DNA of 64,000 nucleotides from Candidatus Omnitrophota bacterium (GTDB lineage: Bacteria; Omnitrophota; Gorgyraeia; Zapsychrales; Fredricksoniimonadaceae). Under the pieces are notes generated by a model. That model was not told where the DNA came from and did not search any database. It saw only the letters and a program-made list of their open reading frames with translations. The stretch lies in NCBI GenBank assembly GCA_903944345.1, contig CAJARJ010000012.1, positions 4,266 through 68,265 of the forward strand, given 5' to 3'. Positions 3,977 through 63,985 of this stretch are shown here, in pieces (position 1 is the first letter of the stretch; each line of letters begins with the position of its first letter). The translations under genes and the position numbers were made by a program.

Positions 3977-5356
3977 CTAGAACGTCAACTCAAACTTTTC
4001 CTCGGGAGCCTTACGATCGCGTTCATCAAGCAGGGCGTTCAGGAGTTTCTCAACCAGTCGTATTGCCCCCATGTAACCAACATTAGGGAAATAGGAATGT
4101 CCAACCCGGTCCATGATAGGAAAACCAAAACGAATCAAAGGTATGTTTTCGTCCCGGGAAATATATTTTCCCCAGGTATTACCAATAAGAAGATCAACCG
4201 GCTCATTCTTGATCCACTGGTGCAAAAGAAACATGTCGGCCTGGGCCCCCTGACGAAATTTAGCCCCGGGCACTCCTTTGAGAACCTCCGCCATCCGCTC
4301 ATCGAAATACTTCCCAGGGGTTCCGGTGACCACATAAACCGGCTGCATCCCGATATCCACCAGAAACTCGCAAAGCGGGACTAACTGATCCGGATCGCCG
4401 TACAACGCCACTCGCTTATTATAAAAATACTGCTCGTTATCAGTCAGAATGTCGACCAGTCGACCGCGCTCCCGTTCAATGCTCTCGGGGACAGCTACAC
4501 CGGCGGCTTCGCTTAAGGTTTTAATAAAACGATCTGTGGCCGCAAGGCCAACAGGAATATCCAATTCGTATAGTTTGACCTTGCACTTGGCGTTCAACAA
4601 TTCGCCGGCGGGGACAGAAGCGTCATGACCAAGAGCCAGAGTGGCCAGACTGTCACCTGTAGCCCGAAGCTCGTCAATAGTTGTTCCTCCGGTTCCATAC
4701 ATATCAAACTGGCCATTTTGCGGACGATCCATAGTCTCGGACGTATCCGGGAACATAATGCTGGCAACTCCCATTTCAACAGCCAGCCTTTTGATCTCCC
4801 GCATATCGGAGGGTTCTACCCAGCCCGGTATAATATTGACCTTGTTGTCCTTTACCCCGGTCGTGAGTGAAAAATATTTCACCATGCTTTTGACCATATT
4901 GGCAAAACCGGTCACATGCGAACCGATATAGCTGGGCGTATTGGCATGAATAATATATTTGTCAGCAGGGATCTTGCCCTCTTCGGCTGCTTTGGCAATG
5001 ATCTGAACAATATCATCCCCTATAGTTTCGGAAAGGCAGGTTGTATGGACTGCTATGACATCCGGTTTATAAAGCGAAAAGATGTTTTCGACCGAAGTCA
5101 GCAGGTTGGCCTGTCCGCCAAAAACCGCCGAACCCTCAGTAAAGGAGCTGGTCGTCGCCATAACCGGTTCTTTAAAATGCCGTGTCAGCATGCTGCGATG
5201 ATACGAACAGCATCCCTGCGAACCATGGCTGTGCGGCAAACAATTATGGATTCCCAACGCCGCATACATCGCCCCGATTGGCTGACAGGTTTTGGCAGGA
5301 TTAATAGTAAGCGCTTCGCGCTCTTTGATATCTTTTGGTGTATGTCGAAGCAACAT
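3977..5356 (-). CDS. nifK: Nitrogenase MoFe protein beta subunit NifK
   Basis: Signature CQPIGAMYAALGIHNCLPHSHGSQGCCSYHRSM. The start is set to the ATG at 5356 (MLLRHTPKD...), which is preceded by AGGAGG and lies 9 nt after the nifD stop, rather than the upstream ATG at 5416 that would overlap nifD by 52 nt. Confidence 0.9.
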   Translation of the reverse strand: MLLRHTPKDIKEREALTINPAKTCQPIGAMYAALGIHNCLPHSHGSQGCCSYHRSMLTRHFKEPVMATTSSFTEGSAVFGGQANLLTSVENIFSLYKPDVIAVHTTCLSETIGDDIVQIIAKAAEEGKIPADKYIIHANTPSYIGSHVTGFANMVKSMVKYFSLTTGVKDNKVNIIPGWVEPSDMREIKRLAVEMGVASIMFPDTSETMDRPQNGQFDMYGTGGTTIDELRATGDSLATLALGHDASVPAGELLNAKCKVKLYELDIPVGLAATDRFIKTLSEAAGVAVPESIERERGRLVDILTDNEQYFYNKRVALYGDPDQLVPLCEFLVDIGMQPVYVVTGTPGKYFDERMAEVLKGVPGAKFRQGAQADMFLLHQWIKNEPVDLLIGNTWGKYISRDENIPLIRFGFPIMDRVGHSYFPNVGYMGAIRLVEKLLNALLDERDRKAPEEKFELTF

Positions 5357-5364
5357 ATGCCCTC

Positions 5365-6999
5365 CTAATTCGTCTCGTTGATAAAGACTGCTGCCAAAGG
5401 TTCCTGTTTGTGCCACGGAGCACGGATATGCTTCCAGACGCGAGTATTTAACATCCGCTCGACATCGCGATAGAAATTGATTGCGCCTTCAAAGGAGGCA
5501 TAGGGTCCGCCATAATCATAGTTATGCAGTTGCTTTAACGGCATCCCCATTTTCTGAATGACGTATTTCTCCTTTATTCCGGCACAAAATATATCCGGTT
5601 TGTATTTTTCGATGATCAGCTCGGTCTCAAAGTGATTAATATCATCAATGACCAGCGTACCGGCATCCATCTCGGGCATCATGCCTTTATAATCCCTGAA
5701 CTCGAAGCCCTTGGCGGCCATGGCATCCAACTGCTCTTTTGTTTTCCGGGCACGAAACTCGCTGGGGTGAGGTTCGACATGCAATTCTTCAATATTGCGG
5801 CTGTCCGCATCGACCTTGATATCCGGAATGACGACTCGTCCCTCATAATCGTCACGATGCGCAAATTCATAACCGGCAGCGAGCACTTTCATGCCCATTT
5901 CCTTGAATAGTTCCTGATAATGATGTGCCCGTGACCCACCCACAAAAAGCATGGCTGTTTTGCCTTCCACTCTTGGTCTGATAACGGCCAGCTCTGCTTT
6001 GACCTTTTCCATCTCTTCGGCAATAACACGTTCAACTTTCTTTTTGAGCTCGGCATCTTCGAAGTAATCGGCTATCTTGCGCAGTGACTTGGCGCTAGCC
6101 TCTGCACCAATGAAGTTCACCTTGAACCAGGGCACCCCGTATTTCTTTTCGATCATATCGGCAACATAATTAATGGAACGGTGGCACATAACAACAACAA
6201 GATCAGCCAGATGTGCAGAGGCAAACTGCTCGTAAGTGGAGTTACCACTAAAAGTTGCTACCAAAGTAATACCGCATTTGGTAAACAGTTCTTCCAATGC
6301 AAAAGCATCGCCGCCGATGTTATATTCACCCAGCATCGCAACCTTGAACTTGCCTTTGGGACAGGTAGTCCCTTTCCCAACCACATGTTTAAAAAGCTGA
6401 TTATTGGCAATATGATGGCCTGCGGACTGACTTACTCCTTTGTACCCCTCGCAACTAAAACCAAAGACATTGGCCCCTGTTTTCTCGCTCATCTCTCTGG
6501 AAACGGCATGAACATCATCTCCGATCAGTCCGATAGGACAGGTGGAAAAAACGCCAACAGCCTTGGGATGGAAAATATCAACAGCCTCTTCGATTGCTTT
6601 TTTGAGTTTCTTCTCACCGCCAAAGATGATGTTTTCATCCTGCATATCAGTTGAAAGACAATAGGTCATGAAATTGTCATCAGTTTCACTCTCGGGACGG
6701 GTCTGGTTTCGTCTGGTCAGCCAGGAATAGAAACCGCAGCCGATCGGTCCATGCGTAATATTAAGAATATTACGCGTCGGGCCGAGCACCACGCCCTTGC
6801 AGCCGGCATAAGAGCATCCGCGCTGGGTGATAATGCCGGGCAAAGTGCGCACATTGGCCTGGATTTCCTGCCTGGGCTCCTGCTCGGGTTCATTAACGAC
6901 AAACTGCTTTTGTCTTTTGCGCGCCGTCTTTGTGGGATAAGCGCTCAGCATTTCGTCTTTTACCGACTGTGCTGACTTGATATCGTTTTGTGCCGACAT
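5365..6999 (-). CDS. nifD: Nitrogenase MoFe protein alpha subunit NifD (long, anaerobe-type)
   Basis: 544 aa, with signature IITQRGCSYAGCKGVVLGPTRNILNITHGPIGCGFYSW and DENIIFGGEKKL. Confidence 0.92.
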   Translation of the reverse strand: MSAQNDIKSAQSVKDEMLSAYPTKTARKRQKQFVVNEPEQEPRQEIQANVRTLPGIITQRGCSYAGCKGVVLGPTRNILNITHGPIGCGFYSWLTRRNQTRPESETDDNFMTYCLSTDMQDENIIFGGEKKLKKAIEEAVDIFHPKAVGVFSTCPIGLIGDDVHAVSREMSEKTGANVFGFSCEGYKGVSQSAGHHIANNQLFKHVVGKGTTCPKGKFKVAMLGEYNIGGDAFALEELFTKCGITLVATFSGNSTYEQFASAHLADLVVVMCHRSINYVADMIEKKYGVPWFKVNFIGAEASAKSLRKIADYFEDAELKKKVERVIAEEMEKVKAELAVIRPRVEGKTAMLFVGGSRAHHYQELFKEMGMKVLAAGYEFAHRDDYEGRVVIPDIKVDADSRNIEELHVEPHPSEFRARKTKEQLDAMAAKGFEFRDYKGMMPEMDAGTLVIDDINHFETELIIEKYKPDIFCAGIKEKYVIQKMGMPLKQLHNYDYGGPYASFEGAINFYRDVERMLNTRVWKHIRAPWHKQEPLAAVFINETN

Positions 7000-7797: not shown

Positions 7798-8739
<942 letters not shown>

Positions 8740-8875
8740 CTATGTCCTGTCTATTCTTTGCATTCAGCACAAAAGAATGACTCAAACCGAAACTGATGCT
8801 CTTTACGGCTTACACTGATACAAGTAGAAAAGATATGTTTTGGTAAGTGGTAAAGCGAAAAAAAGAGGATTATTT

Positions 8876-28381: not shown

Positions 28382-28426
28382 GAACCCAAAAAGGCCGCCT
28401 CCGGTTAAAAAAACCAGATGGCGGCC
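28382..28426 (-). terminator. Rho-independent terminator after the ptsN-like gene
   Basis: Minus strand GGCCGCC-(20-nt loop with inner CCGGTT/AACCAG pairing)-GGCGGCC followed by TTTTTGGGTTC. Confidence 0.65.
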
Positions 28427-28480
28427 CGACCATCAATGCTCCCTCTGAAGGAAAAATTCTTCAGACCCCGTTTATCCGTT

Positions 28481-34526: not shown

Positions 34527-37349
34527 TTACAGGCCCAAGAACACAAACAATGTTGTATCGGCCGGGCGGATATCAATTATGAAGGGAGCAAGCCCTGCAG
34601 CGAAACGGATTGCCTGGGCTTTCACGGGATCAAACACGATACTATTGCCAACTTCTTGAGTCAGAATCTGCAAACCTGATCTGTCAGGGGCAAGATCAAT
34701 GCCGCCTTTCTGATCCGGAGAAATCTTGGACTCCTCGTGGAGATGCACTCCGGAATCATCCACACTTATCCATGTATAAGTCTGCTCTCCCGGAGTATCG
34801 TGGCGACCCCATTCATTGCAGTTTGACCATGTGCCGGAGTTGACATACTGCCAGGCAGTCTCCCCCTCAAGAAGCATCCCCAGAAAACCCTCCCCCGGCT
34901 TCTGGGGTTCATGAGTATGGCCATAAACAATATAACGCTTCCATTGCTCAACAGGAATGTCCTTAAACAAATCCGGGTAAAGATACGGCAGAAGCTCGTC
35001 CCATAACTCGCCCAACTGTCTGATCCTTTTCTTCTGGGCACTAACCAGAAACAGCTGGAACCCGGAAACATTCTTTATCATAAAGGTCATAAAAGGGAAA
35101 AACATATCATTCTCGACAAACTGATTTAGAGTCCCCCAATGACGGTTTGACAACGCACTCATGAAGTTATCAAGGACACTTCCCCCTGCCTGTTTATTAT
35201 TAAACTTGTCGGGAACATGTCCGTGTTCAAAGTGCAGGATCTGACCTGCGGCAGGACGGACAATAACCACATACCGGCTGATAATCATTCTGTCTTTCCG
35301 GTCTTTATTCACCACTTCAAGAAGTTTATGTCCGATATCATCATTGAGGTCCGCTATCATTTTCTGTACATACAACACAGCCTTCGCCAGGGGCATCGAA
35401 AGGACAGAGTCGTCAAACCAGACATATCCTTCTTTGTCCATAACCGGGCCATAAGGCAGCTTCGCCCGGGTAAGCCTGGCAATATCTTTGGCCTTGGCCG
35501 CCCGGATAATGTTCTGAAGTTGTTGCGTGCGGGCAAAATCGGTAATCTCCAGATTTTGAGCCATCTTGGCCAGATGACGCCTCTTTTTTGCGAGACGTTC
35601 CTTGAGGATAACATCATCGTGATTACCTGCAACATAAAACACCTTGTCACAACGGGCTAAAGCTTCAAAGAAAACCTGATAGGACTGATAGACATCGCCG
35701 TAGCGATTCTTCTGAAGCTCGAGGATATCGCCATTGAGCACAACCACCTGTTTCTCTTCTGCCGCAATGCGCAACAGGTCAAGCAATTCCGGTAAACGCC
35801 CGGCAAAAGCGTCATGCGAATCTCCTGCCCCCAGGTGAATATCAGAAAGATTCAGAACCTCCTGATCGGTTCTGTAAATAAAGGTTCTTTGCTTTTTGCT
35901 CCAGCGCTTTACCTCCTCAAGCAAGGCCTCCGCCCGCTTGGCAAGCCTGGGATGCCGCTTCATTCGTTTGCCGAAAAAAGCATCCACTTTCCCGTTATGA
36001 ATGGAGAACAATATGGACTCCTTCTTATACTTCTCCTGCCAGAACCAGCCACCCGCAATCGCCTGCTGAATAAAACGTACGACTTGCTTCTTCTTGTCAC
36101 CGGTAACCCCCAGCCACTGGTCTTGCGATCCGTTATGAAAAAGCATCAAAGGGTTCTTTTCGGCAACCTTGCGCCAGGCTCTGGCTGGCGAAGAAGATAG
36201 TGCCTCGTCTGGCTCTGCCGACTGCGAAAAATCAGCCCTGTCGTCCGGAACAATTTGCATGGCCGTGCGAATGATCATGGTTCGCCCGGAAAACCCGGGA
36301 AGGGATACATCCTCGGAAAAAGGGCGAATATCCATAGCGGCGTCCACTCCCAGATCAAATCCTCCGGAAAAATATTTTCTCGGCAGTGGCTGACCGCCAG
36401 AAGAATCCGGATCTTCTGCAATATGCGTATAGGCACCCGTATTAAATCCCTGAGCATACCGCTTCCATATGTCATGCGGTTCTTGCGGATTGGCAATACT
36501 TACTCCGGCAGTTTTGGCGCGATCTGCATACTCCTGTGACAACACAGACTGCTTCATTTTGATCTTGTACCAGGCGGCAAGAATCAGGGAATGATACACC
36601 TGACGTAATTGGGCAAAATAGCTGCCTTCATTAACCTCTTTTTCTATAACCGGGATAACGACCTCGCGTAAAACAGAAACAGCCATAGAGGAAATTTCAG
36701 AAGTGGTATCAACGCTCGCAGCGTTATAATCCCTGTCAAGGATCACTTCAAGCCGGGCTTCGGCCACATACGCCGCTCCGGCATTTTCATAGACCACAGC
36801 TTTGCGGGGAACAATCCAGACCTTATTGATCAGCTCTAATGGAATATCGGTGGTGCCGTACTTTTGCTGTGCCAAAGCATATATCTTTTGCCAGAACTTC
36901 TCACCAGTCTTGTCTTGCGGGAACAACAAGGCCGTCGTTAACTGTTTAAGCAGATAATCCTGGGCCAGAAGATCGCGTCCCATCTCCGTCAGGCCGAAAG
37001 TTGGAGGAATAACACGATTTTCTTCGTACGGGCTCAGGTTAACCCACAGATCATGCTCGGGAATGGTCAAAGCGGCCAAAAAGTACTTAAGCAAACGGGT
37101 GGAGTCAACCCTGATATCATTAAATGAAATATTGGCATCCCCTTTATCAAGAATGAAATCAAACCTTAAGGGTTCATCCGGATAAATTTTTATGCCTTGA
37201 AGAAGGGGGGGATTAAGTGCCTGGCTTGGGGCCGACACCTGGCCGGGAAAAAGGTCGACTCCTGCCTCAAGAGGAGACAAGTTAACAGACACAAATACCA
37301 ACAAAATGATAAAAGTTAAGAACTTCATCACAAAAACCGGGAATGCCAA
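34527..37349 (-). CDS. Large secreted protein, paralog 1: novel conserved N-terminal domain, calcineurin-like metallophosphoesterase module and conserved C-terminal tail
   Basis: 940 aa with a signal peptide MKFLTFIILLVFVSVNLSPLEA. The N-domain motifs LRFDFILDKGD, WVNLSPYE, TEMGRDLLAQDY, GTTDIP, LAAWYK and RKYFSGGFD are shared with the 851-aa and frameshifted paralogs. The metallophosphoesterase motifs are SDIHLG, NGDILE, GNHD, HFEHGH and GHTHEP. The tail is GGIDL...AGLAPFIIDIRP. Confidence 0.8.
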   Translation of the reverse strand: MAFPVFVMKFLTFIILLVFVSVNLSPLEAGVDLFPGQVSAPSQALNPPLLQGIKIYPDEPLRFDFILDKGDANISFNDIRVDSTRLLKYFLAALTIPEHDLWVNLSPYEENRVIPPTFGLTEMGRDLLAQDYLLKQLTTALLFPQDKTGEKFWQKIYALAQQKYGTTDIPLELINKVWIVPRKAVVYENAGAAYVAEARLEVILDRDYNAASVDTTSEISSMAVSVLREVVIPVIEKEVNEGSYFAQLRQVYHSLILAAWYKIKMKQSVLSQEYADRAKTAGVSIANPQEPHDIWKRYAQGFNTGAYTHIAEDPDSSGGQPLPRKYFSGGFDLGVDAAMDIRPFSEDVSLPGFSGRTMIIRTAMQIVPDDRADFSQSAEPDEALSSSPARAWRKVAEKNPLMLFHNGSQDQWLGVTGDKKKQVVRFIQQAIAGGWFWQEKYKKESILFSIHNGKVDAFFGKRMKRHPRLAKRAEALLEEVKRWSKKQRTFIYRTDQEVLNLSDIHLGAGDSHDAFAGRLPELLDLLRIAAEEKQVVVLNGDILELQKNRYGDVYQSYQVFFEALARCDKVFYVAGNHDDVILKERLAKKRRHLAKMAQNLEITDFARTQQLQNIIRAAKAKDIARLTRAKLPYGPVMDKEGYVWFDDSVLSMPLAKAVLYVQKMIADLNDDIGHKLLEVVNKDRKDRMIISRYVVIVRPAAGQILHFEHGHVPDKFNNKQAGGSVLDNFMSALSNRHWGTLNQFVENDMFFPFMTFMIKNVSGFQLFLVSAQKKRIRQLGELWDELLPYLYPDLFKDIPVEQWKRYIVYGHTHEPQKPGEGFLGMLLEGETAWQYVNSGTWSNCNEWGRHDTPGEQTYTWISVDDSGVHLHEESKISPDQKGGIDLAPDRSGLQILTQEVGNSIVFDPVKAQAIRFAAGLAPFIIDIRPADTTLFVFLGL

Positions 37350-37370: not shown

Positions 37371-39926
37371 CTATTGGAAGATGGAAACAGCCGGATCAAC
37401 TATCCGGTCGATCCCGATAATCCGCGGTGAAAGTCCTGCTCTTACGGCCGGCAGAGTGGCTGAATCGATATTAAAATGAATCGGTCCACCATCATTAGCG
37501 ATATCCAGCTTCATATTGCGAGTGGACATATCAATACCACCCACCGGCTCAACCGCCTGACTCGCATCGGCTATTCTTTTATGCAAAACATCCTGACTCC
37601 AGTGATCCTTACTGTCTTTCACTGACCGATAATCGTTAGCGATGGCCTCAAGAGACTCTGCAATCGTTCTGTCCCACCCACCCCATGTGCCCGCAAACTC
37701 TGGAATCAATCCCCTTGAATATTTCAACGCCAGATCATACGGATTGGAATTTGCGTATTCAACAAGATCCGCATCGACAATCAAAACTTCCGGAGTCCCG
37801 TCCTGGGCGGACTGAAGAATAAAATTCGCAGCTCGGGGGTCATTTATCAGGATTCCTCTGCCTACAAGTGTACGGAACAGACGGATAAGAGCCTTGATAA
37901 TGTCCTCGTTCATTGTACCGGCGGCAATCACCTTATCCAGAGAGTCACCTGACATCCATTCCACAGCCAGAAGTTCTCTGCCATTGGTAGCCTTGATCAC
38001 TGCAACCCATGCCGGACCAACTCCCTCTTGTTCGACTATTCTGAAACCGTCTTTAATCTCCTTAAGAACAGTATCCATCCTGATCGGCGCCCGAATAGCC
38101 ATATGCTGGTTTTTATAGACATCATGGTTACCGCCAGATCCGACATATTCCTGCTGAACCCCTTTCATAATCAAGGTTTTTTCTCTTCCCTCAACCTGAA
38201 CGGGTTTCGACCGGCCCAGATGAATCAGCTGGGAGAACCGCTTGAGAGAAAAATTCATTAAAACACGCTGAAGCTGTCGTTCTAAAGAGGAATCATCTAT
38301 CTCCAGCACAACCTGATGAACACCAGGCCCCAGAGCAGGCAAAACCAGGTCATTAAGAAGAAGATAGTTCATCGGTTGTTGCCAATATTGACGCCAGAGT
38401 TCTTTATTGGTTATCTTCCTGATAATGATCATTTTCTCACCATACTGCCCGGCATACACGTCTTCGTTATCAGAAGACTTCAATAATCTGGTCTTCTCGA
38501 CATTATCTGTCACAAAACCACGTAAAAAACGCCGCCTTGTATTCTCAAGATCTTCATTAAAAGCAGCCACAGATGTCCCGAGCGAATCAAAAAAAGTCGC
38601 CATGCCCGGACTAGTGCGCTGATAAAGAAAGGTTTTAACAACTACCTGGCTTAACCTGAGAATATAATCCGGGGTAGCCTCTCTCCTTGAAATATCCGGT
38701 TTCTGCGCCATATCTGTCGATATATCCGAACGGCTGTCCTGAGGCTCTACCAAAACTCCTACTCTTATCAACCCTTGCGGATTATTAGCAAAAAGATTGC
38801 TGGAAATCTCCTGTAGGGATGCACGTTCCATCGCTTTATCGAAGTCCGGCGCAAACCCGCCCGAGAAATATTTGCGCAATAGCGGGTCACCCGAAAAAGG
38901 ATCCGCCTCTTCTTTGATATAACTAAAAACACCCTGCCTGAAAGCGGCCATGTATTGCTGGTAAATTTCATTAAGTACTTTGGGATCTCTAAGATTAACT
39001 CCATCCGTCTTGCCTTTGTCAACGTACTGATCGTACAAGATACCTTCCTTGACCTTGCGCTTGTACCATGCCGCCAACGCCATGGAGTAATAAATCTTGC
39101 GCAACAAGGCGAAACTTTCACCATCATTGATTTCTTTCTCGATAACAGGAAGAATAATTTCACGCAACCCGGGTTGAACCTGATTTTCTTCGGCCTCGTT
39201 ATGGACACTATTGCCAGATTGCACCTTCTCCGCCAGATAATCGCGCTCCAGCGCGACTTTCATCCTGGCATTCGCCAGCATGGCTATATTTCCATTCTCA
39301 TAAAACGCCGCTTTGTCCGGGCTGATCCAGACTTTATTGAAAACATCAAACGGAATATCAGTAGTTCCAAAGGCTTCCTGCGCACGCCGATAAACGTCAG
39401 TCCAGAATTTCTTCCCCAACGGTGCCTCGGGGTATACAAGAGAAGCCATAATCTGTTTGAGCATATAATCCTGAGCCAACAGGTCACGCCCCATCTCGGT
39501 ACGGGCAAAATTTTCACTAACAATCCGCTTATCTTCATAAGGAGAAAGGTTGACCCACTGCTCCTCTTCCGGAACAGTCATTGCTGCCAGAAAATATTTA
39601 ACCAGTCTCTCGGATTCAGCGGTCAGCGCCTCACCGGAAAGCAGCTCGTCTCCCTGATCCATAAAGAAATTAAAACGAAAAGGATTATTGATGTCCACCT
39701 GAATGCCAACCAGGCAAGCGGGCTTGAACCCGTGGCTGACATCAACCATAGATCCCGGCAACGGCAAGGCTACGCCTTCAATGGCATATACCGGCAAAGA
39801 ATTGATGAATAACACCTGAACAATAATAATATGAAATAGAATGCGAAACATCAGTTTCTCCCAAACATTCAAACTTTCAGAATTATGAAACTTACCACCC
39901 GATAATAAATATAATATATATATCAA
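37371..39926 (-). CDS. Large secreted protein, paralog 2: same N-terminal domain and C-terminal tail, with a putative kinase-like internal module
   Basis: 851 aa with a signal peptide. The N-domain is FRFNFFMDQGD, WVNLSPYEDKR, TEMGRDLLAQDYMLKQ, GTTDIP, LAAWYKRK and RKYFSGGFA. The internal region has a Gly-rich loop VGSGGNHDVY, ILINDPRAANFIL and LIVDADLV, which suggests a kinase-like fold. The tail is GGIDM...AGLSPRIIGIDR. Confidence 0.8.
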   Translation of the reverse strand: MIYILYLLSGGKFHNSESLNVWEKLMFRILFHIIIVQVLFINSLPVYAIEGVALPLPGSMVDVSHGFKPACLVGIQVDINNPFRFNFFMDQGDELLSGEALTAESERLVKYFLAAMTVPEEEQWVNLSPYEDKRIVSENFARTEMGRDLLAQDYMLKQIMASLVYPEAPLGKKFWTDVYRRAQEAFGTTDIPFDVFNKVWISPDKAAFYENGNIAMLANARMKVALERDYLAEKVQSGNSVHNEAEENQVQPGLREIILPVIEKEINDGESFALLRKIYYSMALAAWYKRKVKEGILYDQYVDKGKTDGVNLRDPKVLNEIYQQYMAAFRQGVFSYIKEEADPFSGDPLLRKYFSGGFAPDFDKAMERASLQEISSNLFANNPQGLIRVGVLVEPQDSRSDISTDMAQKPDISRREATPDYILRLSQVVVKTFLYQRTSPGMATFFDSLGTSVAAFNEDLENTRRRFLRGFVTDNVEKTRLLKSSDNEDVYAGQYGEKMIIIRKITNKELWRQYWQQPMNYLLLNDLVLPALGPGVHQVVLEIDDSSLERQLQRVLMNFSLKRFSQLIHLGRSKPVQVEGREKTLIMKGVQQEYVGSGGNHDVYKNQHMAIRAPIRMDTVLKEIKDGFRIVEQEGVGPAWVAVIKATNGRELLAVEWMSGDSLDKVIAAGTMNEDIIKALIRLFRTLVGRGILINDPRAANFILQSAQDGTPEVLIVDADLVEYANSNPYDLALKYSRGLIPEFAGTWGGWDRTIAESLEAIANDYRSVKDSKDHWSQDVLHKRIADASQAVEPVGGIDMSTRNMKLDIANDGGPIHFNIDSATLPAVRAGLSPRIIGIDRIVDPAVSIFQ

Positions 39927-46253: not shown

Positions 46254-46387
46254 TCATCGTTATGCCAGAAAAAATATCCCTGAAGATTGGTCGGTGGCAG
46301 GTTAAGTACCTGACGAGTATAATATATCCTACTCTATGTATTAACAAAGGCAAAAAGCCCATCCAGCAGTATGGACAGGCTTTGGAA

Positions 46388-48668
46388 TCAATAATTCTGT
46401 GTGTCACTAATTATTTTATACGGATCTATAGAGATAATAACCGGTGAGAATCCGGCAGCGTTCTGCATCTGCTGAAGCTGCTCAGAGGTCAGGTCTACCT
46501 CGATTGCAGTGCTATTATTCCGTGTCTCAAACTGGGCATTGTCGGGGTTCAGGTTAATACCACCGACTGCTTCCTGCCCAGGCAGAGAAGACAAGGGCTT
46601 TTCCATCAAAATTCCCCATTCTTCATTCATCCTCCGGGACAACTCCCAGGATTTCTGCAACAAACTTCCTCTATTGCGGCTCTTGAGCAGCGCAAGAACT
46701 TCTTCCGCATAAAATTGCTGATCCTTATCAAGAACAAGTGGTTTATACCCCAACATTCTATACAAAACAAAATTGGCTAATCCGTGAGGCAAAGTGCTGC
46801 CAATTACAAGAGAATCATAACCAGACTCGACTGCCAGTTCCTCGAGAGACTTAAGAATACTTTTAAATAATGCGCCCGCGTAAGGGAAAGATGGATACAT
46901 CTGTGACGGATACAACATGCGTTCCTCGTTTCGCAAGCGCTCCAGCAACAACTGCACGTTTGTATCATCGTCTTTCACCTTCAGAGCCGATTCAATTTGC
47001 GTTTGTCTCAGGCCCACGCTGGCCTCAGCAAAAGAAAGAAGAACTTTGCGATCCTGCCAGTCAAACTGCGGTAAAGCTTGCATAAACACGCCCTTTAACT
47101 GCTCCAAAACTTTCTCCAAATTACGCTTTCCCCACTCATCTGACCCCATCCAGATTTTCTGCGTCAGGATTACAGGTGACGAGGTGGTCATCTCCAGATG
47201 GGCCCGGCCGATGATTAACGAGTTGCGATCAAAACCACGACCATTCAATAAATTAAATTGGATAAAAACACCCTGATTATTCCTGTAGACAAGATCGTAA
47301 CTGTCGAAATCATCGGACTGGATTATCTCTCCCAGAAGCGTACGGGTTGTAAGCGTTCGCCCGGGGCCTCTTAAGATATCAACTTGCGGCTCATCATAAT
47401 ACTGCGACAATATCCCCTCCAGACGCTCTTTCTGACGTTCAATCAGCCGGCTAAACTGCTCTCTATCCGCTCTGGAACGTTTAACCTTCAGTTTGGGTAA
47501 AACAGACTCCTGAGCCGGATCTCCTGGCAGAACAGAGGTCTCTTCACGAACAATCACCAGTCTGTCAGCAGCACTCGGCCCCAGGTCAACCGGCCATACG
47601 TCCGATTTTACTGTCAGAGAACTATCCATTGCCCAATCAATACCGCCGGAAAAATATTTTCTGACCAACACTTCGTCAAACAATGCATCAGGTTCTTCCT
47701 TAATAAAATCATACGCGCCCTTGCGGAAGGAAACGACATAATCCTTCCAAATACGGTCCACTTCCCCGGGGTCTGGAATATTTATTCCGGCAACCTTATT
47801 CCGGTCAACGTAAACAGCGGACAATAATGATTGTCTGATCTTTCGTTTATACCAGGCGGCAAGAATCAAAGACTGATAAACCTGTCTGAGCGTCGCAAAG
47901 TTCTTACCTTCATTAACCTCTCGCTCCAGTTCAGGAATGACCATCGTACGTAAAGCTTCCTCCATCATCATATGATCCGGACTTGCGGTTTGGGGCACCG
48001 CACTTTTTTCTTGTGCCAGATAATCACTTTCCAGCTTAACCTCCAAGTGAGATTCGGTTACATAAGCCAGCCCCATCTCGCCATTCTCAAATACTACAGC
48101 TTTTCCAGGAACAATCCAAACCTTGTTCAACGTATCAAGCGGAATATCCGTAGTGCCATATTTTTCCAGGATCCGGGCGTAAATTCTCTTCCAGAATACT
48201 TTTCCAATCTCCCCTTCAGGGTTAAGAGTCTTTGCGGTGATTTGCTTGAGAAAATAATCCTGCACCAGTAAATCTCGCCCCATCACAGTCTGCCCAAAGG
48301 CTGGGGGAACGATGCGATTTCTTTCATATGGACTCAGGTTAACCCAGAGGTCATTTTCAGGAATTGTCAGGCTGGCAAAAAAAATATTTAATCAGACGGG
48401 TTGATTCACTTTTGATCTGGTCATTAGTAATTCTTTCATCGCCTTTATCAAGAATAAAATCAAACCTGAGCGGATTTCGAGGATATACCCTAATTCCTTT
48501 TAATACAGGCGGATTGAACGCCGGACTTAAAGACACCACCTGACCACCGGGAGGAGTCAAAATCGGCTCCCCGGCATACAGAATAACTGGGCTCAAAACA
48601 TGTGCCAGAACTATCCAAATGATGACAAATTTTCTTAGAAACATGAAGGAAAGATACCTGACCAACAC
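46388..48668 (-). pseudogene. Large secreted protein, paralog 3: frameshifted in an A8 homopolymer, with its 3' end overwritten by an element terminal repeat
   Basis: The N-terminal ORF 48357-48668 (signal peptide, then LRFDFILDKGDE...KYFFCQPDNS-stop) and the ORF 46388-48286 (MMGRDLLVQDY...) are joined by a +1 shift inside a run of 8 A (48377-48384). With 7 A the reading is KYFFASLTIPENDLWVNLSPYERNRIVPPAFGQTVMGRDLLVQDY, collinear with paralogs 1 and 2. The last 9 codons (KIISDTQNY-stop) are encoded by the element TIR at 46391-46415. Confidence 0.7.
46391..46415. repeat. Solo terminal inverted repeat of the 133-bp element (inverted left end)
   Basis: AATTCTGTGTGTCACTAATTA matches 21 of 21 of the reverse complement of the element's left end (AATTAATTAGTGACACACAGAATT). 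No internal element sequence follows. Confidence 0.6.
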
Positions 48669-48742
48669 CTGTTTTGCAAATATTTATAATACGAAGCCAA
48701 GTTGCAGTGATGCTGGAGGACATGTCTTATAGCGTAAAGCAA

Positions 48743-48775
48743 TGACACAGAATACAATAAAACAATTCTGCGTGA
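48743..48775. repeat. Collapsed mini-copy of the element: both TIR halves separated by 8 bp
   Basis: TGACACAGAAT-ACAATAAA-ACAATTCTGCGTG, about 70-110 nt upstream of the paralog 3 start. Confidence 0.5.
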
Positions 48776-48836
48776 TAATCATTAACAGAGCTTCCTCCCT
48801 TATGGAAAATTGCGGACGGTCTATGGGGGGGACTAA

Positions 48837-59103: not shown

Positions 59104-59718
59104 ATGGATAATGCATTAACGCCCCGGCCAAAACAGAAACGCAATCGCGAAGACAGTAAACAACGCATTCTAAAAGCGGCTTTGGAGACTTTTTCTGAGG
59201 TCGGCTATGATGCGGCTACAACGAAAATGATTTCACTGCGGGCTGGATTAAACGAATCACTAATTCAGCGTTATTTTCAAAGCAAATTCAACTTGCTGGT
59301 AGAAGTGACCCATTCCTCTATGGAAGCCATGCGATTAAAGACACCCCCACCCCCTGCCGCCACACCGGAAGAGGAAATCTGTAACTTCCTGATTAACAAA
59401 CTAGAACACGATTCTCAAAATCAAGGATTCTTAAAGATTCTTTTTTCCAGGCTTCTCATTGACCCGGAGGTTCGAACTGAATTAAAGAAACGTCAGGGAG
59501 GAATGCCGCCAAACTTATTTTTAAAAGATCGCCTCGTAGCATTCCAAAAAAAAGGGCAAATAAGAAATGACATCAACATCGACACTTTAATACAATCTTT
59601 ATTAGCCCAGTCCATCTCTGCCGGTCTATTTGAACGAATATTCTTTGAGAAAGATATTGAAACCTGCAAAGAGCAGTTTCGACAATTTACAAAAAATATT
59701 GTTAAAGGGATTTGTTAG
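59104..59718 (+). CDS. TetR-family transcriptional regulator
   Basis: 204 aa with the N-terminal HTH (ILKAALETFSEVGYDAATTKMISLRAGLNESLIQRYFQSK), divergent from tolC-RND. Confidence 0.85.
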   Translation: MDNALTPRPKQKRNREDSKQRILKAALETFSEVGYDAATTKMISLRAGLNESLIQRYFQSKFNLLVEVTHSSMEAMRLKTPPPPAATPEEEICNFLINKLEHDSQNQGFLKILFSRLLIDPEVRTELKKRQGGMPPNLFLKDRLVAFQKKGQIRNDINIDTLIQSLLAQSISAGLFERIFFEKDIETCKEQFRQFTKNIVKGIC

Positions 59719-59745: not shown

Positions 59746-59878
59746 AATTAATTAGTGACACACAGAATTGTTTCTTGACATTCTTTACGACAATTAAACT
59801 TGTTGCAGGTCTGGATTTTTTCATTGCAATAGAATGTAACAGAATGTGATAGAACAATTCTGTGTGTCCCCGATTATT
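59746..59878. mobile_element. 133-bp MITE-like element, copy A, with 18-bp terminal inverted repeats
   Basis: AATTAATTA-GTGACACACAGAATTGTT...(about 100 bp)...AACAATTCTGTGTGTCCC-CGATTATT. It is 98% identical to copy B at 61822-61954 and lies between tetR and tacA. Confidence 0.7.
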
Positions 59879-59994
59879 TTTCTGTACGTAATCGATCCGG
59901 CCTCAAAGACGGCGGTGTTATGATCATAAATTATTTAGTGTGGACAAAGTGTGTACGGAATGGTATCCTTGAATCGTAAAAGAAAGGATCACCT

Positions 59995-60270
59995 ATGCCA
60001 GTTATACAAAAAGACACCCGCATTGACCTGAGGATCGAGAACTCCCAAAAGGACTTCCTGGTCTATGCCGCAGGTCTCAAAAACATGAAGCTCTCCGCTT
60101 TTGTATTAAACAGCGCGATCAAGGAAGCCGAGGATCTGGTGGCCAGCAAGACCCAGTTTGCACTGCCAGATGCCCAATGGAAGGCCTTTAGCGCGGCTTT
60201 GGACCGCCCTGCGCGCGAGAACCCCAAGCTCAAGAAACTCTTCAAGTCAGCCGATGTTTTCCATGGATAA
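59995..60270 (+). CDS. tacA: DUF1778/TacA-family ribbon-helix-helix antitoxin
   Basis: 91 aa (RIDLRIENSQKDFLVYAAGLKNMKLSAFVLNSAIKEA), preceded by the RBS AAGGA. Its stop overlaps the toxin start as ATGGATAA. Confidence 0.8.
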   Translation: MPVIQKDTRIDLRIENSQKDFLVYAAGLKNMKLSAFVLNSAIKEAEDLVASKTQFALPDAQWKAFSAALDRPARENPKLKKLFKSADVFHG

Positions 60271-60766
60271 GCTTAAAAACCCTGTCCTTCTGGACCAGCA
60301 CCATGATGTCGATGATTTCGACTGCGGTGCTGAGCCTTTAAACAATTACCTTAAGAACTTTGCTCTCACCAACAATCAGAACGGATCGGCCAGGACATAC
60401 ATTACGACCAGATCCGGTAAGGTTGTCGGCTACTATACATTGACCCCAGGCTCGGTCATCAAGGCCACAACACCGCAACGTGTCGGCAAAGGCCTCGCTA
60501 ACCACCCGGTACCCGTCATTGTCATCGCCCGTCTGGCCGTTGATAAGACTGAACAAGGCCACGGCATCGGTAAAGCGCTTGTCCGCGACGCACTGTTAAG
60601 GATCGTTGACGCCGCCGAAATTATTGGAGGCCGCGCCGTTCTCGTCAACGCAAAAGACGCACAGGCTAAACGTTTCTACGAGCAACTGGGCTTTGATCCA
60701 TCCCCCATCGACCCGCTTCATCTTTATTTACTCATCAAAGATATTCAGAAGACAATCGGACTTTAA
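60263..60766 (+). CDS. tacT: GNAT-family acetyltransferase toxin (TacT-like)
   Basis: 167 aa GNAT fold (VIVIARLAVDKTEQGHGIGKALVRDALLRI). The start is set to MDKLKNPVLL, overlapping the tacA stop. The track ORF extends further upstream, out of frame with tacA. Confidence 0.8.
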   Translation: MDKLKNPVLLDQHHDVDDFDCGAEPLNNYLKNFALTNNQNGSARTYITTRSGKVVGYYTLTPGSVIKATTPQRVGKGLANHPVPVIVIARLAVDKTEQGHGIGKALVRDALLRIVDAAEIIGGRAVLVNAKDAQAKRFYEQLGFDPSPIDPLHLYLLIKDIQKTIGL

Positions 60767-60909
60767 TTCTTTAAACTATTTGACGAATACCAACGGGCAT
60801 CTTTGACTTATCACCGACATTGGCGAAGGCTCAGGAAGCCCGTCAGCGGTGATCCTAGCTAATCAGAAAACCCGGCTTTGCTCCCGGATAGGCCGGAGCC
60901 TCGAGAACC

Positions 60910-61809
60910 TCACCGATTATATTCGTAGTGCACACTCCGTCCGCCGCCGGAGGCTTGCCGTAACAAGCCTTTTTCGACCATATCCGAGATCTCACGGAAC
61001 GCGGTCGCCCTGCTCGTGCTCCCAAGGCTCACATATTTCCGGGTCGTCAAACCACCGACAAATTCACCCGGCCCGGCATCCAGCATCCGATTAAGGATCT
61101 TCTTTTGACGCTCATTGAGCTGAACTTGCGCGTGCTCTGCCCAAAAATCCGCCTTCAAAAGGACCTTGCCCATTATCTTTTCCGACTTCCCGATGGCGCG
61201 CTGATAACACCCAAGGAACCACGAGAGCCAGCCTGTGAGGTCCAGATCAGCTGTCTTCGAGTTCTTCTCGAGGATCTTGTAATAGTCATCCCGCTCTTCC
61301 ATGATCTGGGATGAAAAGCTGTAGTATCTCACCTTGAGTTTCTCGTCCTGCGCGAGCGCCATATCAGTAAGGCTCCGGGCAATACGCCCATTGCCATCCT
61401 CAAAAGGATGGATCGTCAGAAAATAAAAATGCGCCACCCCCGCGCGCAGAAGCCCGTCCACACTGCCGTGGCTTTCCTTCCACCACTGAAGGAATCTTTT
61501 CATTTCACCATCGACCTCGTCCCCGGGAGGCGCCTCAAAATGGATACGTTCACGCCCCACTGGCCCCGAAACAACGCGCATAGGGTCGTCGTGGCCTCTC
61601 CATTGAGCGACGCGGATCTTATGAAGTCCCGAGTACCCTGTCGGAAAAAGAGCGCCATGCCATCCAAAAAGCCTCTGCTTATTCAAAGAAATATCGAATT
61701 TCCGGGTCGCGTCCAGAACAACCTCGACGAGCCCATCAACAGACCTGGATGAACCCCCGAGACCCGCTGTGGGAAGCCCCAGGTGCCTTGCCACTGAGGA
61801 GCGGACCAT
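60910..61809 (-). CDS. fic: Fic/DOC-family protein (AMPylator-type) with a C-terminal winged-helix domain
   Basis: Fic motif HPFEDGNGRIARSL. The first ATG is at 61809 (MVRSS...). The track uses a TTG at 61821 that abuts the element. Confidence 0.8.
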   Translation of the reverse strand: MVRSSVARHLGLPTAGLGGSSRSVDGLVEVVLDATRKFDISLNKQRLFGWHGALFPTGYSGLHKIRVAQWRGHDDPMRVVSGPVGRERIHFEAPPGDEVDGEMKRFLQWWKESHGSVDGLLRAGVAHFYFLTIHPFEDGNGRIARSLTDMALAQDEKLKVRYYSFSSQIMEERDDYYKILEKNSKTADLDLTGWLSWFLGCYQRAIGKSEKIMGKVLLKADFWAEHAQVQLNERQKKILNRMLDAGPGEFVGGLTTRKYVSLGSTSRATAFREISDMVEKGLLRQASGGGRSVHYEYNR

Positions 61810-61821
61810 CTGCAAATTCAA

Positions 61822-61954
61822 AATTAATTAGTGACACACAGAATTGTTTCTTGACATTCTTTACGACAATTAAACTTGTTGCGGGTCTGGATTTTTTCAT
61901 TGCAATAGAATGTAACAGAATGTGATAGAACAATTCTGTGTGTCACCGATTATT
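61822..61954. mobile_element. 133-bp MITE-like element, copy B, with perfect 18-bp TIRs
   Basis: Same sequence as copy A with 2 mismatches, and perfect TIRs GTGACACACAGAATTGTT / AACAATTCTGTGTGTCAC. It is followed by a tandem 11-bp duplication CCGATTATTCC x2 (61946-61967) that overlaps the stop of the Ank-RES gene. Confidence 0.7.
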
Positions 61955-61960
61955 CCCCGA

Positions 61961-63985
61961 TTATTCCACCGCCTCGCTCGACTGCTTCCAACGATCCCAC
62001 GATGAGCGCCTACCGCACTTTAGGCATTCGTGACCAGGGCCGATGTATGGCACGTCCAAAACATCCAAGAGGCGGAATACTCTCACAAGCTCAGAACTGC
62101 TATGCTGAAAGTACCGATAGCCACATTCCGGACATACCACTTCCACGTAGTTCGGATTTCGGTCGGAACCGCCCAACCGGTTGGCCGTGACGCCAGATGA
62201 CAGCAGATCCAAGTAGAGCACCTTCTCCTGACACTGAAGGGTAACTGTCATGATGGAATCCATGTAACGTATCGGCGACAACACCATGTGTTCTTTAGGC
62301 GGGGCGTAGTTCACCCTGCCGTCGGCTACCTCACTGAATGTCAGAATGCACTCTGCTTCAACAAGTTGCCCTTGCCCGTCCGTTTTGGTCACTCGAAACA
62401 CGTTGACGGCTGCAACCCCCAGCTTGCTATCCACCTCCTCTGGCTTTATTGCCAAGTTTTCGTATGCCACAGGCGAATCAGTTCTTCGGATCGATGGGTA
62501 TAAAAAGCCTGAATTGCCAGGAAAATCGAAGTAGGTGTCAATGATCTCATTGGTAAGCTTGTAATACTTCTCGTCAGTGCGCGTCAGAGTGAAAAGACCA
62601 TTGAGGAACTCATTGGTTCTCACAAGCGCACGCTTTCTCTCCTCGGTGACCGGGATGTCTGCTATTTCGGCCAGCATTTCGATGCCGATCGGCGCCACGG
62701 TGAGTGACATCCCGTCCCGAATAACGTAGGAAACCATAGTGAAAACTTCACCTATATGCATCTCGCCCACCTCAAAGATTGGTGCGATGGGATTTGTCGA
62801 CGCGTACAGCAAGGGTGCGTGCGGCCTGTTGCATCTGCCGTACGACTTGCATGACTGTGCAGGCGGATAAAAGAGATCAGCCACTTGGTGGAAGGCATCA
62901 ACCCCATGATTCTTCCTGATCCTGTAGAAACTCATCTGCCCCGGGGACACGTTAACACTGCCAGCAACTACTTCCGGCATGATCTCGACAAGAATCTCAC
63001 GGATCGTTGGCCATGGCTCCGCTCTATCAAGGCAGTCGTTGAAATCTGCGATTGCCACCTCTCTGCGCCGAACTGAAATTGGGAGTGGGAATTTCACATC
63101 CGCGCTCGCACCCGAACTGGCTAGAAGTTGTACTATTTCAGTATATCCGTTAAGAGTGGCAATCTTGAGCGCAGTAAAACCGTTATGGCAAGGCAGGTCT
63201 GGGTTTGCTCCAGCCTTCAATAGGAACGCGGCGACTTCGTACCGACCCCAGCAGCATGCGGTCATCAACGCTGTAGAACCCCTTTTATTCGTCGCATTCA
63301 GATACGCGCCGTTCTTGACGAGAAGTTCGACTACGCCGACATGCCCGAATTGAGAGGCAACGTGAAGAGCCGCGCTTTGGTTTTCTTTGGTCAGACGCCT
63401 GCCAACATCTGCACCATTACTCAGAAGAAGACGCACGACACTCTCTTGTCCGCCCTGCGATGCCATGAACAATGGGGTTGCACCGTCGTTCCGGAGTGAC
63501 AAGTCAACTTTGGCGCCGAGAGCAAGCAGGAGCTGTGCGGTCTCGAGTCTATTCTCCTGGCACGCTACGGAGAGAGGCGTTGCTGTGCCCATGTCAGGGT
63601 CTGCACCGGCTTCGACCAACATGCGGACCACTTCCGAATAGCCATTCTCGCTGGCGATATACAGCGCCGTTAGCATTGCTACACTTATCATCCGTATATT
63701 TGGGTCTACCTCCCGCTCGACGAGGTCCTTACGATATTGTGCTCCGTCTACTTCTGCCTCAATATATGAAAGACCGTTTGGATCAGCCCCGTTCCGGAGC
63801 AGGAGCGTTACGATCTCAGAGGAATTCGCCTGCGCGGCTGCATATAAGGGCAGAAATTTGCCGGAATGGGTTTCGTAGATTTCGTTGACAATCCCTGGAT
63901 TCAACGTAAGGGCAACACGCACGCCCGTGGGGTTCCCTTGGAGAATCGCTTTTATCAACGCGTCAGTGGCAAAACGTTTCATCAT
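61961..63985 (-). CDS. Ankyrin-repeat protein fused to a RES-domain (NAD-targeting toxin-like) module and a C-terminal zinc ribbon
   Basis: 674 aa with about 8 ankyrin repeats (TPLxxAxxxGHxxVVxLLLxxGAD pattern). It then has a RES-like core (SFYRIRKNHGVD...GRCNRPHAPLLYASTNPIAPIFEVGEM...YPSIRR) and ends in CPECGYRY...CLKCG. Confidence 0.7.
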   Translation of the reverse strand: MMKRFATDALIKAILQGNPTGVRVALTLNPGIVNEIYETHSGKFLPLYAAAQANSSEIVTLLLRNGADPNGLSYIEAEVDGAQYRKDLVEREVDPNIRMISVAMLTALYIASENGYSEVVRMLVEAGADPDMGTATPLSVACQENRLETAQLLLALGAKVDLSLRNDGATPLFMASQGGQESVVRLLLSNGADVGRRLTKENQSAALHVASQFGHVGVVELLVKNGAYLNATNKRGSTALMTACCWGRYEVAAFLLKAGANPDLPCHNGFTALKIATLNGYTEIVQLLASSGASADVKFPLPISVRRREVAIADFNDCLDRAEPWPTIREILVEIMPEVVAGSVNVSPGQMSFYRIRKNHGVDAFHQVADLFYPPAQSCKSYGRCNRPHAPLLYASTNPIAPIFEVGEMHIGEVFTMVSYVIRDGMSLTVAPIGIEMLAEIADIPVTEERKRALVRTNEFLNGLFTLTRTDEKYYKLTNEIIDTYFDFPGNSGFLYPSIRRTDSPVAYENLAIKPEEVDSKLGVAAVNVFRVTKTDGQGQLVEAECILTFSEVADGRVNYAPPKEHMVLSPIRYMDSIMTVTLQCQEKVLYLDLLSSGVTANRLGGSDRNPNYVEVVCPECGYRYFQHSSSELVRVFRLLDVLDVPYIGPGHECLKCGRRSSWDRWKQSSEAVE

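Follow-up and report, generated by a model that had tools for sequence, protein, structure and literature searches.

A 131-bp palindromic, non-coding repeat family at the joints of gene modules in a variable chromosomal region of uncultured Omnitrophota

In the 64,000-nt stretch of the Omnitrophota contig CAJARJ010000012.1 that we analysed (the window), a tacAT toxin-antitoxin pair and part of a fic gene are enclosed by two direct copies of a 131-bp palindromic repeat, which is a discrete, non-coding and previously undescribed family. The repeat family is genuinely new and its architecture is unusual; about ten copies underlie the proposed mechanism, and no enzyme was found. The architecture fits the insertion or deletion of modules through recombination at the element better than it fits two transpositions or a classical composite transposon. 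An earlier note on this DNA had proposed a MITE (a miniature transposable element with inverted repeats) and possibly a composite mobilisable cassette. From that proposal the repeat family, its terminal inverted repeats (TIRs), its exact ends and its occurrence in a second species hold up, whereas no target-site duplications, transposase or dispersal were seen. The host lineage belongs to the uncultured Omnitrophota of stratified-lake metagenomes; its pyruvate kinase has 80% identity to proteins from metagenome-assembled genomes of Omnitrophota. The DNA read comprises about 82 kb from this genome, 21 kb from a sister species and 20 kb from a third lineage, and the same locus is present in more than 10 independent assemblies at about 99.9% identity.

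The two complete copies in the window, c1 and c2, lie where the earlier note had placed them and are identical at 131 of 133 positions (two differences), in direct orientation and 2,076 bp apart. The copies and remnants of the element in the window are:

59746..59878 (exact termini 59748-59878), + strand: element copy c1, 28 nt past the stop of the regulator gene tetR and 117 nt ahead of tacA
61822..61954 (exact termini 61824-61954), + strand: element copy c2, its left terminus fused to fic codon 73
61955..61965 (11 nt), + strand: partial tandem duplicate of the right terminus, CC plus CCGATTATT, directly after c2
46390..46417, no strand assigned: solo terminal repeat of 27 nt with one mismatch in the 18-mer, at the junction of a 6.8-kb indel where core synteny ends
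48741..48785, + strand: degenerate remnant resembling the right part of the element, nearest to the short c3 subtype

Aligning copies that have five different flanks sets the termini exactly. The element begins with TTAATTAG at 59748 (c1) and 61824 (c2), and ends with CCGATTAT(T) at 59878 and 61954; its size is 131-133 bp. The inverted repeats had been described as 18 bp long; this is the length of their perfect core, while the repeats themselves are about 27 nt long (left AATTAATTAGTGACACACAGAATTGTT, right AATAATCGGTGACACACAGAATTGTT) and the arms of the element pair across 36-39 nt at 79-83%. Within each repeat there is an internal dyad, AATAAT/AATTAAT ... ATTGTT, with an asymmetric centre, as read from the sequence. 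The 18-mer GTGACACACAGAATTGTT has five sites in the window at no more than three mismatches, compared to 0.03 expected from shuffled sequences, the fifth being the solo repeat (46390-46407). Both copies have stops in five of the six frames, and a search of 5.8 billion protein clusters with the single open frame found no match, in agreement with the earlier description of the copies as non-coding. A long DNA hairpin is predicted for c2 (-24.8 kcal/mol, z -5.8). Small size, lack of coding capacity and terminal inverted repeats (here of about 27 nt) are features that the element shares with MITEs.

More copies lie beyond the window. About 130 bp past the window end is c3, a short subtype of about 90 bp in which the terminal repeats are retained around a different interior; this suggests that function resides in the repeats. 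About 8 kb further on there is c4, a fourth full copy (L046 9752-9888), so that four full copies and two remnants are counted in this lineage. The sister species harbors three more copies, which are placed among entirely different genes, and none is found in the third lineage across the 20 kb that correspond. Between the two species, identity is 94-97% for the element copies and 84-90% for the core DNA; the element is thus better conserved between species than the core genome. Scans for the exact repeat in 185,579 GTDB species-representative genomes, JGI metagenomes and IMG/VR returned solely single chance matches, the longest of 22 nt, and none extends meaningfully past the 18-mer. A blastn search of the element against plasmid and phage collections gave no match. 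The search for further terminal repeats that the earlier note had called for yielded more copies beyond the window and in the sister species, but none outside a single region of about 26 kb within the 82 kb read.

This region is variable. Synteny of the core with both relatives stops at 46349-46383 of the window, and the variable region runs from there for about 26 kb, to about 72,400 (window-equivalent), where it ends at a tRNA gene beside recR. It contains all six copies or remnants of this lineage, and about 56 kb of flanking core DNA contains none. The copies part a paralogue fragment, an 11-kb efflux block, the tacAT segment, an ankyrin-repeat gene with an IS3 remnant, and defence genes. 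The efflux block encodes BON, MacB/HlyD, AcrB, OEP and TetR proteins; the defence block carries AbiJ and SMODS-type genes with an HTH/M78 pair and is followed by the tRNA. The genes that adjoin c1 and c2 on their outer sides are:

59104..59718, + strand: tetR regulator, last gene of the efflux block (module M2), left flank of c1
61961..63985, - strand: ankyrin-repeat gene (module M4), right flank of c2

Just past the window end, the ankyrin gene is followed by a remnant of an IS3-family transposase C-terminus and then by c3. The solo repeat, which the earlier note had noticed near 46391, is found at 46390, exactly at the junction where the window lineage does not have the 6.8 kb of the third lineage; in place of those 6.8 kb the window has nothing but the 27-nt repeat. 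The extra DNA of the third lineage (L050 838-7650, opposite window 46384-46418) contains three genes, one of them for a 1,481-aa protein. The second remnant had been interpreted as two terminal repeats collapsed to an 8-bp spacer at 48743-48775. There is indeed a weak remnant at 48741-48785, which matches the right part of the element at 79% identity across 34 nt and has mismatches at four of 18 positions of the repeat; its origin by collapse of both repeats is possible but not demonstrable.

The segment between c1 and c2 was described as a tacAT-fic cassette. The two genes of the toxin-antitoxin pair are intact, but the segment as a whole is a patchwork of tacAT, a TfoX fragment and a truncated fic. 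Its parts are:

59879..61821 (1,943 bp), no strand assigned: bracketed segment, module M3, a mosaic
59995..60270, + strand: tacA antitoxin gene, intact (Pfam TacA1, E = 3e-21)
60263..60766, + strand: tacT gene for a GNAT toxin of 167 aa, intact, its start overlapping the end of tacA
60828..60917, no strand assigned: fragment of a TfoX_N gene, matching L029 6320-6447 (TfoX_N) and L028 1502-1530
60910..61809, - strand: fic fragment of 299 aa, residues 1-72 missing and the last residues replaced

The G+C content of module M3 is about 0.52, compared to 0.39-0.46 in the DNA to its left. The tacAT module proper (promoter region, tacA and tacT, at 59931-60766) has 88-90% DNA identity to modules in toxin-antitoxin arrays on other metagenome and metagenome-assembled-genome contigs. 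The fic part (60923-61823) is 95.6% identical in DNA sequence to intact fic genes. Full-length Fic relatives have 371-380 aa and 92-98% identity; the window copy begins at their residue 73, and the homology to intact fic DNA ends no more than 2 nt from the left terminus of c2. The 5' part that fic lacks is not found across c2; instead, c2 is followed by the 11-nt terminus duplicate, within which the stop codon of the ankyrin open reading frame (ORF) falls (61961-61963). The Fic fragment keeps the active-site motif HPFEDGNGR and has lost, together with residues 1-72, TSEIEG, which matches the Fic autoinhibitory motif [ST]xxxE[GN]. The fragment may be an AMPylating toxin that is deregulated, or no more than a dead gene.

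The geometry seen at fic recurs at other copies. The left terminus of the element meets five unrelated sequences and the right terminus five or six. The same exact ends on many unrelated flanks argue for enzymatic joining of ends and not for random breakage. A gene truncated at its 5' side abuts the left end three times with the same geometry: fic at codon 73 and two different IS3-family orfB genes; in none of these three cases is the missing gene part found on the other side of the element. In the sister species one partial copy cuts a pair of IS66-type genes (ORFs read by eye). Target-site duplications, which the earlier note had suggested looking for, are found neither at c1, c2, c3, c4 and two sister copies (no direct repeat of at least 2 nt at the termini) nor around the c1...c2 pair as a whole. 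All full copies (four from this lineage, three from the sister species) have the same orientation relative to the chromosome, and every copy lies between blocks of different origin. Several copies are preceded or followed by short tandem partial copies of their own terminus, as c2 is. The repeated unit is usually a C filler plus the last 9, 11-12 or 19 nt, with breakpoints that are mirror-symmetric at both ends of the element. Beside one sister copy (L034 8085-8170) there are seven such units in L034 versus three in L035-L038. The array closes in an abutted junction that resembles a right end joined to a left end, CCGATTAT|TTAATTAA.

From the exact termini, the absence of duplications, the truncated end genes, the common orientation, the location at module joints and the conservation between species, we infer an enzyme, a circular intermediate and an order of events. 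The best reading of these observations, to which we give about an even chance, is that of a non-autonomous element that builds arrays in the manner of IS26, through circular units of one element plus adjacent DNA and through recombination between copies. The terminal repeats of about 27 bp are probably recognised by an enzyme that is encoded elsewhere and acts in trans. The element seems not to spread by simple cut-and-paste, and its ends are joined exactly to new DNA with no duplication of the target. The end of a resident copy would attack nearby DNA, by which one element and the adjacent segment would be deleted or circularised; the circle would re-enter at another copy, either via the same enzyme or via ordinary homologous recombination across the 131 bp, and repeated cycles would produce an array of gene modules parted by directly oriented copies. 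The arrangement c1-tacAT-tfoX'-fic'-c2 would be one such unit, whose far edge was cut in the donor fic at codon 72/73 and which then would have been inserted at a copy already present between tetR and the ankyrin gene. The model explains why the module follows c1 on its right without a break, that fic is cut at the left end of c2, and that copies lie between foreign blocks.

The comparison with IS26 is close in architecture. In IS26 arrays the copies are directly oriented, duplications are absent, and insertion takes place beside a copy that is already resident (PMC4196232). A translocatable unit of IS26 consists of one element and the adjacent DNA, its far edge lying where the end attacked, often within a gene (PMC4196232). 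Similarly, the element has unrelated segments between direct copies, no duplication, and genes cut exactly at the element end. However, IS26 has 820 bp and its own DDE transposase, whereas our element has 131 bp and is non-coding; no copy carries an IS6-family transposase, and the element is therefore not a member of the IS6 family. To our knowledge, its repeats are also unrelated to the terminal repeats of IS26.

Several points weigh against an IS26-like origin of the arrays. We found no transposase or recombinase able to act on the element within the 82 kb read of this genome. The fetched assemblies contain no circle junction, empty site or cassette-free variant. The earlier note had asked for presence/absence polymorphism, and no cassette-free or single-copy allele was found among these assemblies, in which it was sought via the ankyrin, TacT and outer-membrane proteins. 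All of the roughly ten known copies come from a single neighbourhood of the chromosome, so selection or plain homologous recombination could make much of the pattern. A site-specific recombination site equally predicts co-orientation and missing duplications, and the terminal tandem duplicates are not predicted by the IS26-like model. Finally, the conservative reaction of IS26 requires an active transposase gene in both partners (PMC4196232), which a 131-bp element cannot supply; the analogy is thus mechanistically incomplete.

It is unlikely that the element is a classical MITE, moved by the DDE transposase of a related insertion sequence (IS), and that two independent insertions bracketed tacAT-fic and thereby formed a composite transposon that is now mobile as a pair. 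The element does resemble prokaryotic MITEs (Correia, ERIC, the 439-bp Acinetobacter MITE, TIME-COMPs) in its size, TIRs, hairpin and lack of coding capacity, in its several copies with exact termini, and in the existence of subtypes with common ends. Pairs of prokaryotic MITEs can bracket genes (PMC10969869, PMC3934969, PMC13367494), and pairs able to mobilise genes are known (PMC3934969, PMC13367494). However, 5-bp repeats are present at the Acinetobacter MITE pair (PMC3934969), whereas a target-site duplication is found at none of five copies of our element nor around the pair. Two insertions also do not explain why fic is truncated at c2 while its 5' part is missing beyond c2, and the uniform orientation of the copies is unlike random insertion. 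The element further differs from MITEs in that all copies seen are from one region and in its partial terminal duplicates. No parent IS is known for it: a cognate transposase with matching terminal repeats, which the earlier note had proposed to seek, is found neither in the 82 kb nor in public collections, that is, the genomes and metagenomes scanned and the plasmid and phage collections. IS3, IS30 and IS66 were considered as parents and rejected, as the IS3 remnant has its own unrelated end, all three are truncated, and no matching repeat is seen beside the IS66 and IS30 remnants. Truncated genes of these types are present in the sister sequence L034 (IS66 and IS30, ORFs read by eye; IS3, Pfam rve/rve_3), at 1-330, 5829-6443 and 6600-6745, together with a zeta-toxin fragment at 8422-8748; several of the truncated genes in L034 are cut at or close to element copies.

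The tRNA gene at the end of the variable region has to be considered before turning to site-specific recombination. A 17-bp repeat of the tRNA 3'-end is found 190 bp downstream of the tRNA, and c4 lies 14 nt further. Copies of this 17-bp end are located at L046 9529-9545 and 9735-9751, at L034 1919-2110 and 8803-8932, and at L029 710-851 and 4196-4374. In relatives the repeat grows to a unit of about 200 bp, composed of the tRNA end, CCA and a terminator, which lies between toxin-antitoxin modules. The repeated tRNA-end units are a sign of repeated integration at the tRNA, independent of the 131-bp element. The 17-mer (at up to three mismatches) and a 22-mer extended into the tRNA have no match in the window, and the 17-bp repeat has no sequence in common with the element, which is thus not a tRNA-derived attachment site. 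The region resembles tRNA-linked islands built by tandem accretion, in that it borders on a tRNA gene whose 3'-end is repeated over 17 bp, but the element has no sequence in common with the tRNA or with the units of about 200 bp, and only a single copy lies beside the tRNA-derived repeat. The tRNA gene itself is split by a group I intron (L046 8920-9546, about 8.4 kb past the window end; Rfam RF00028, 60.9 bits), and was missed by ARAGORN. The intron region contains an ORF of 98 aa that reads by eye as an HNH endonuclease, without a recorded domain match. The defence genes that follow the ankyrin gene (L010 14251-20285, L046 10001-17443, past the window end) comprise AbiJ_NTD4, two SMODS nucleotidyltransferases (CBASS-like), and a pair of HTH_31 and Peptidase_M78.

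An alternative explanation, to which we assign a low probability, is site-specific recombination, with each 27-bp repeat as the core site of a tyrosine recombinase (Xer- or integrase-like) and the blocks between alternately oriented sites as exchangeable modules. The missing duplications, the strictly uniform orientation and the position of the sites at module boundaries would all be expected, as would the tRNA-linked integration hot spot with c4 14 nt from the 17-bp repeat. The internal dyad around an asymmetric centre in each repeat and the recurrent, mirror-symmetric breakage of the partial duplicates at 9, 11-12 and 19 nt from either terminus fit as well, as does the strong single-strand hairpin of the element. 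The attC sites of integrons and the CTX phage attachment site also fold into single-strand hairpins. In pdif modules and attC arrays, toxin-antitoxin and accessory modules are bounded by short structured sites in ordered orientation, without duplications, and our array is similar in these respects. However, an integrase or recombinase gene is absent from the 26-kb region. The integron cores RYYYAAC/GTTRRRY are unmatched, and the perfect stem has its GTT/AAC triplets at the inner ends, the opposite of the attC arrangement. Sites of the dif type are 28 bp long, with 11-bp arms for XerC and XerD on either side of a 6-bp spacer, and are bound by the Xer proteins of the host. By inspection, neither a dif consensus nor a XerC/D-type 11-6-11 consensus is recognisable in the repeat, despite its internal dyad. 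Three junctions cut through genes, which is abnormal for cassette systems, and the modules are 2-11 kb long and contain whole operons and gene fragments, unlike integron cassettes, which are short, carry single genes and mostly lack promoters. The tRNA-derived repeat is found beside c4 only and not beside the other copies. A more specific form of this explanation, which we regard as improbable, is that the 27-bp repeats are tyrosine-recombinase cores and the co-oriented elements form a chromosomal module-exchange system of Omnitrophota, with a new hairpin site of about 130 nt, that trades toxin-antitoxin and defence modules. If this were the case, the array, sited at a tRNA-linked hot spot, would correspond to integron cassettes or plasmid dif modules, and aberrant strand exchange would have left the stuttered terminal duplicates as its scars.

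That the element is a passive palindrome, which spread once and was then rearranged by RecA recombination, hairpin-induced slippage and breakage without a dedicated enzyme, seems quite improbable. Near-identity over 131 bp suffices for homologous recombination, a long hairpin could stall replication, and the number of tandem terminal duplicates differs from one population to another, which is also how slippage products behave. But random breakage would not repeat the same terminal nucleotide at five unrelated junctions per side, and decay leaves the 94-97% identity of the element, versus 84-90% for the core, unexplained.

Even more doubtful is a functional RNA or regulatory hairpin (a terminator, processing site, small RNA or operator) kept by selection between genes. 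The element is always intergenic and highly conserved, and c2 has a very stable predicted RNA fold on the + strand (-50.4 kcal/mol, z -9; -41.6 kcal/mol on the - strand). However, Rfam has no family for the element above noise, the only hits being sub-threshold plant microRNA hairpins, and no promoter- or terminator-like site was found inside it. Most neighbouring genes are on the strand with the weaker fold, and the neighbours are functionally unrelated. The few copy-to-copy substitutions are mostly in the loop and too few to test covariation, and the truncated genes at the element ends are left unexplained. An operator for the neighbouring TetR was rejected as copies adjoin unrelated genes in another species.

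A simple segmental duplication or assembly artefact is hardly credible: the near-identical direct copies 2,076 bp apart, the contigs that break in the repeat and a 100-N scaffold join would be compatible with it, but more than 10 independent assemblies show the same arrangement, among them k=141 contigs that span the repeat, and additional copies are found in unrelated contexts as well as in another species. The earlier note had named a local operator or a segmental duplication as what would overturn its reading, and both are excluded by these additional contexts and the second species. The repeat does break short contigs and mis-join metagenome assemblies (L015, L016, L039, L043). An apparent variant allele in L043 was rejected for this reason: at 4301-4400 the scaffold fuses c1 to c4 across 100 N and skips about 12 kb. 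We also rejected the repeats of a diversity-generating retroelement, as the two differences between c1 and c2 are not one-directional adenine changes and there is no reverse transcriptase, and an invertible promoter switch, as the interior is inverted in no assembly.

Two further features of the window were noted. Three paralogous genes for large proteins are located on the - strand at 34527-37349, 37371-39926 and 46388-48286, with DNA similarity of 66-75%. The first contains a calcineurin-like phosphoesterase domain; no Pfam match was obtained for the third, which is shorter and lies between the two remnants of the element. In addition, an nhaA-I riboswitch is found at 28416-28468 (- strand; Rfam RF03057, 45.1 bits, over the gathering score).

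The Omnitrophota are an uncultured and poorly studied phylum, and a full-text literature search returned no paper that names MITEs together with Omnitrophota. The element appears to organise a hot spot for the exchange of toxin-antitoxin, Fic, ankyrin and anti-phage genes. If a non-coding element of 131 bp indeed builds IS26-like arrays, or represents a new recombination site, then the type of module shuffling known from resistance plasmids would also occur in environmental genomes, and the module-shuffling architectures of clinical plasmids would extend to non-autonomous elements.

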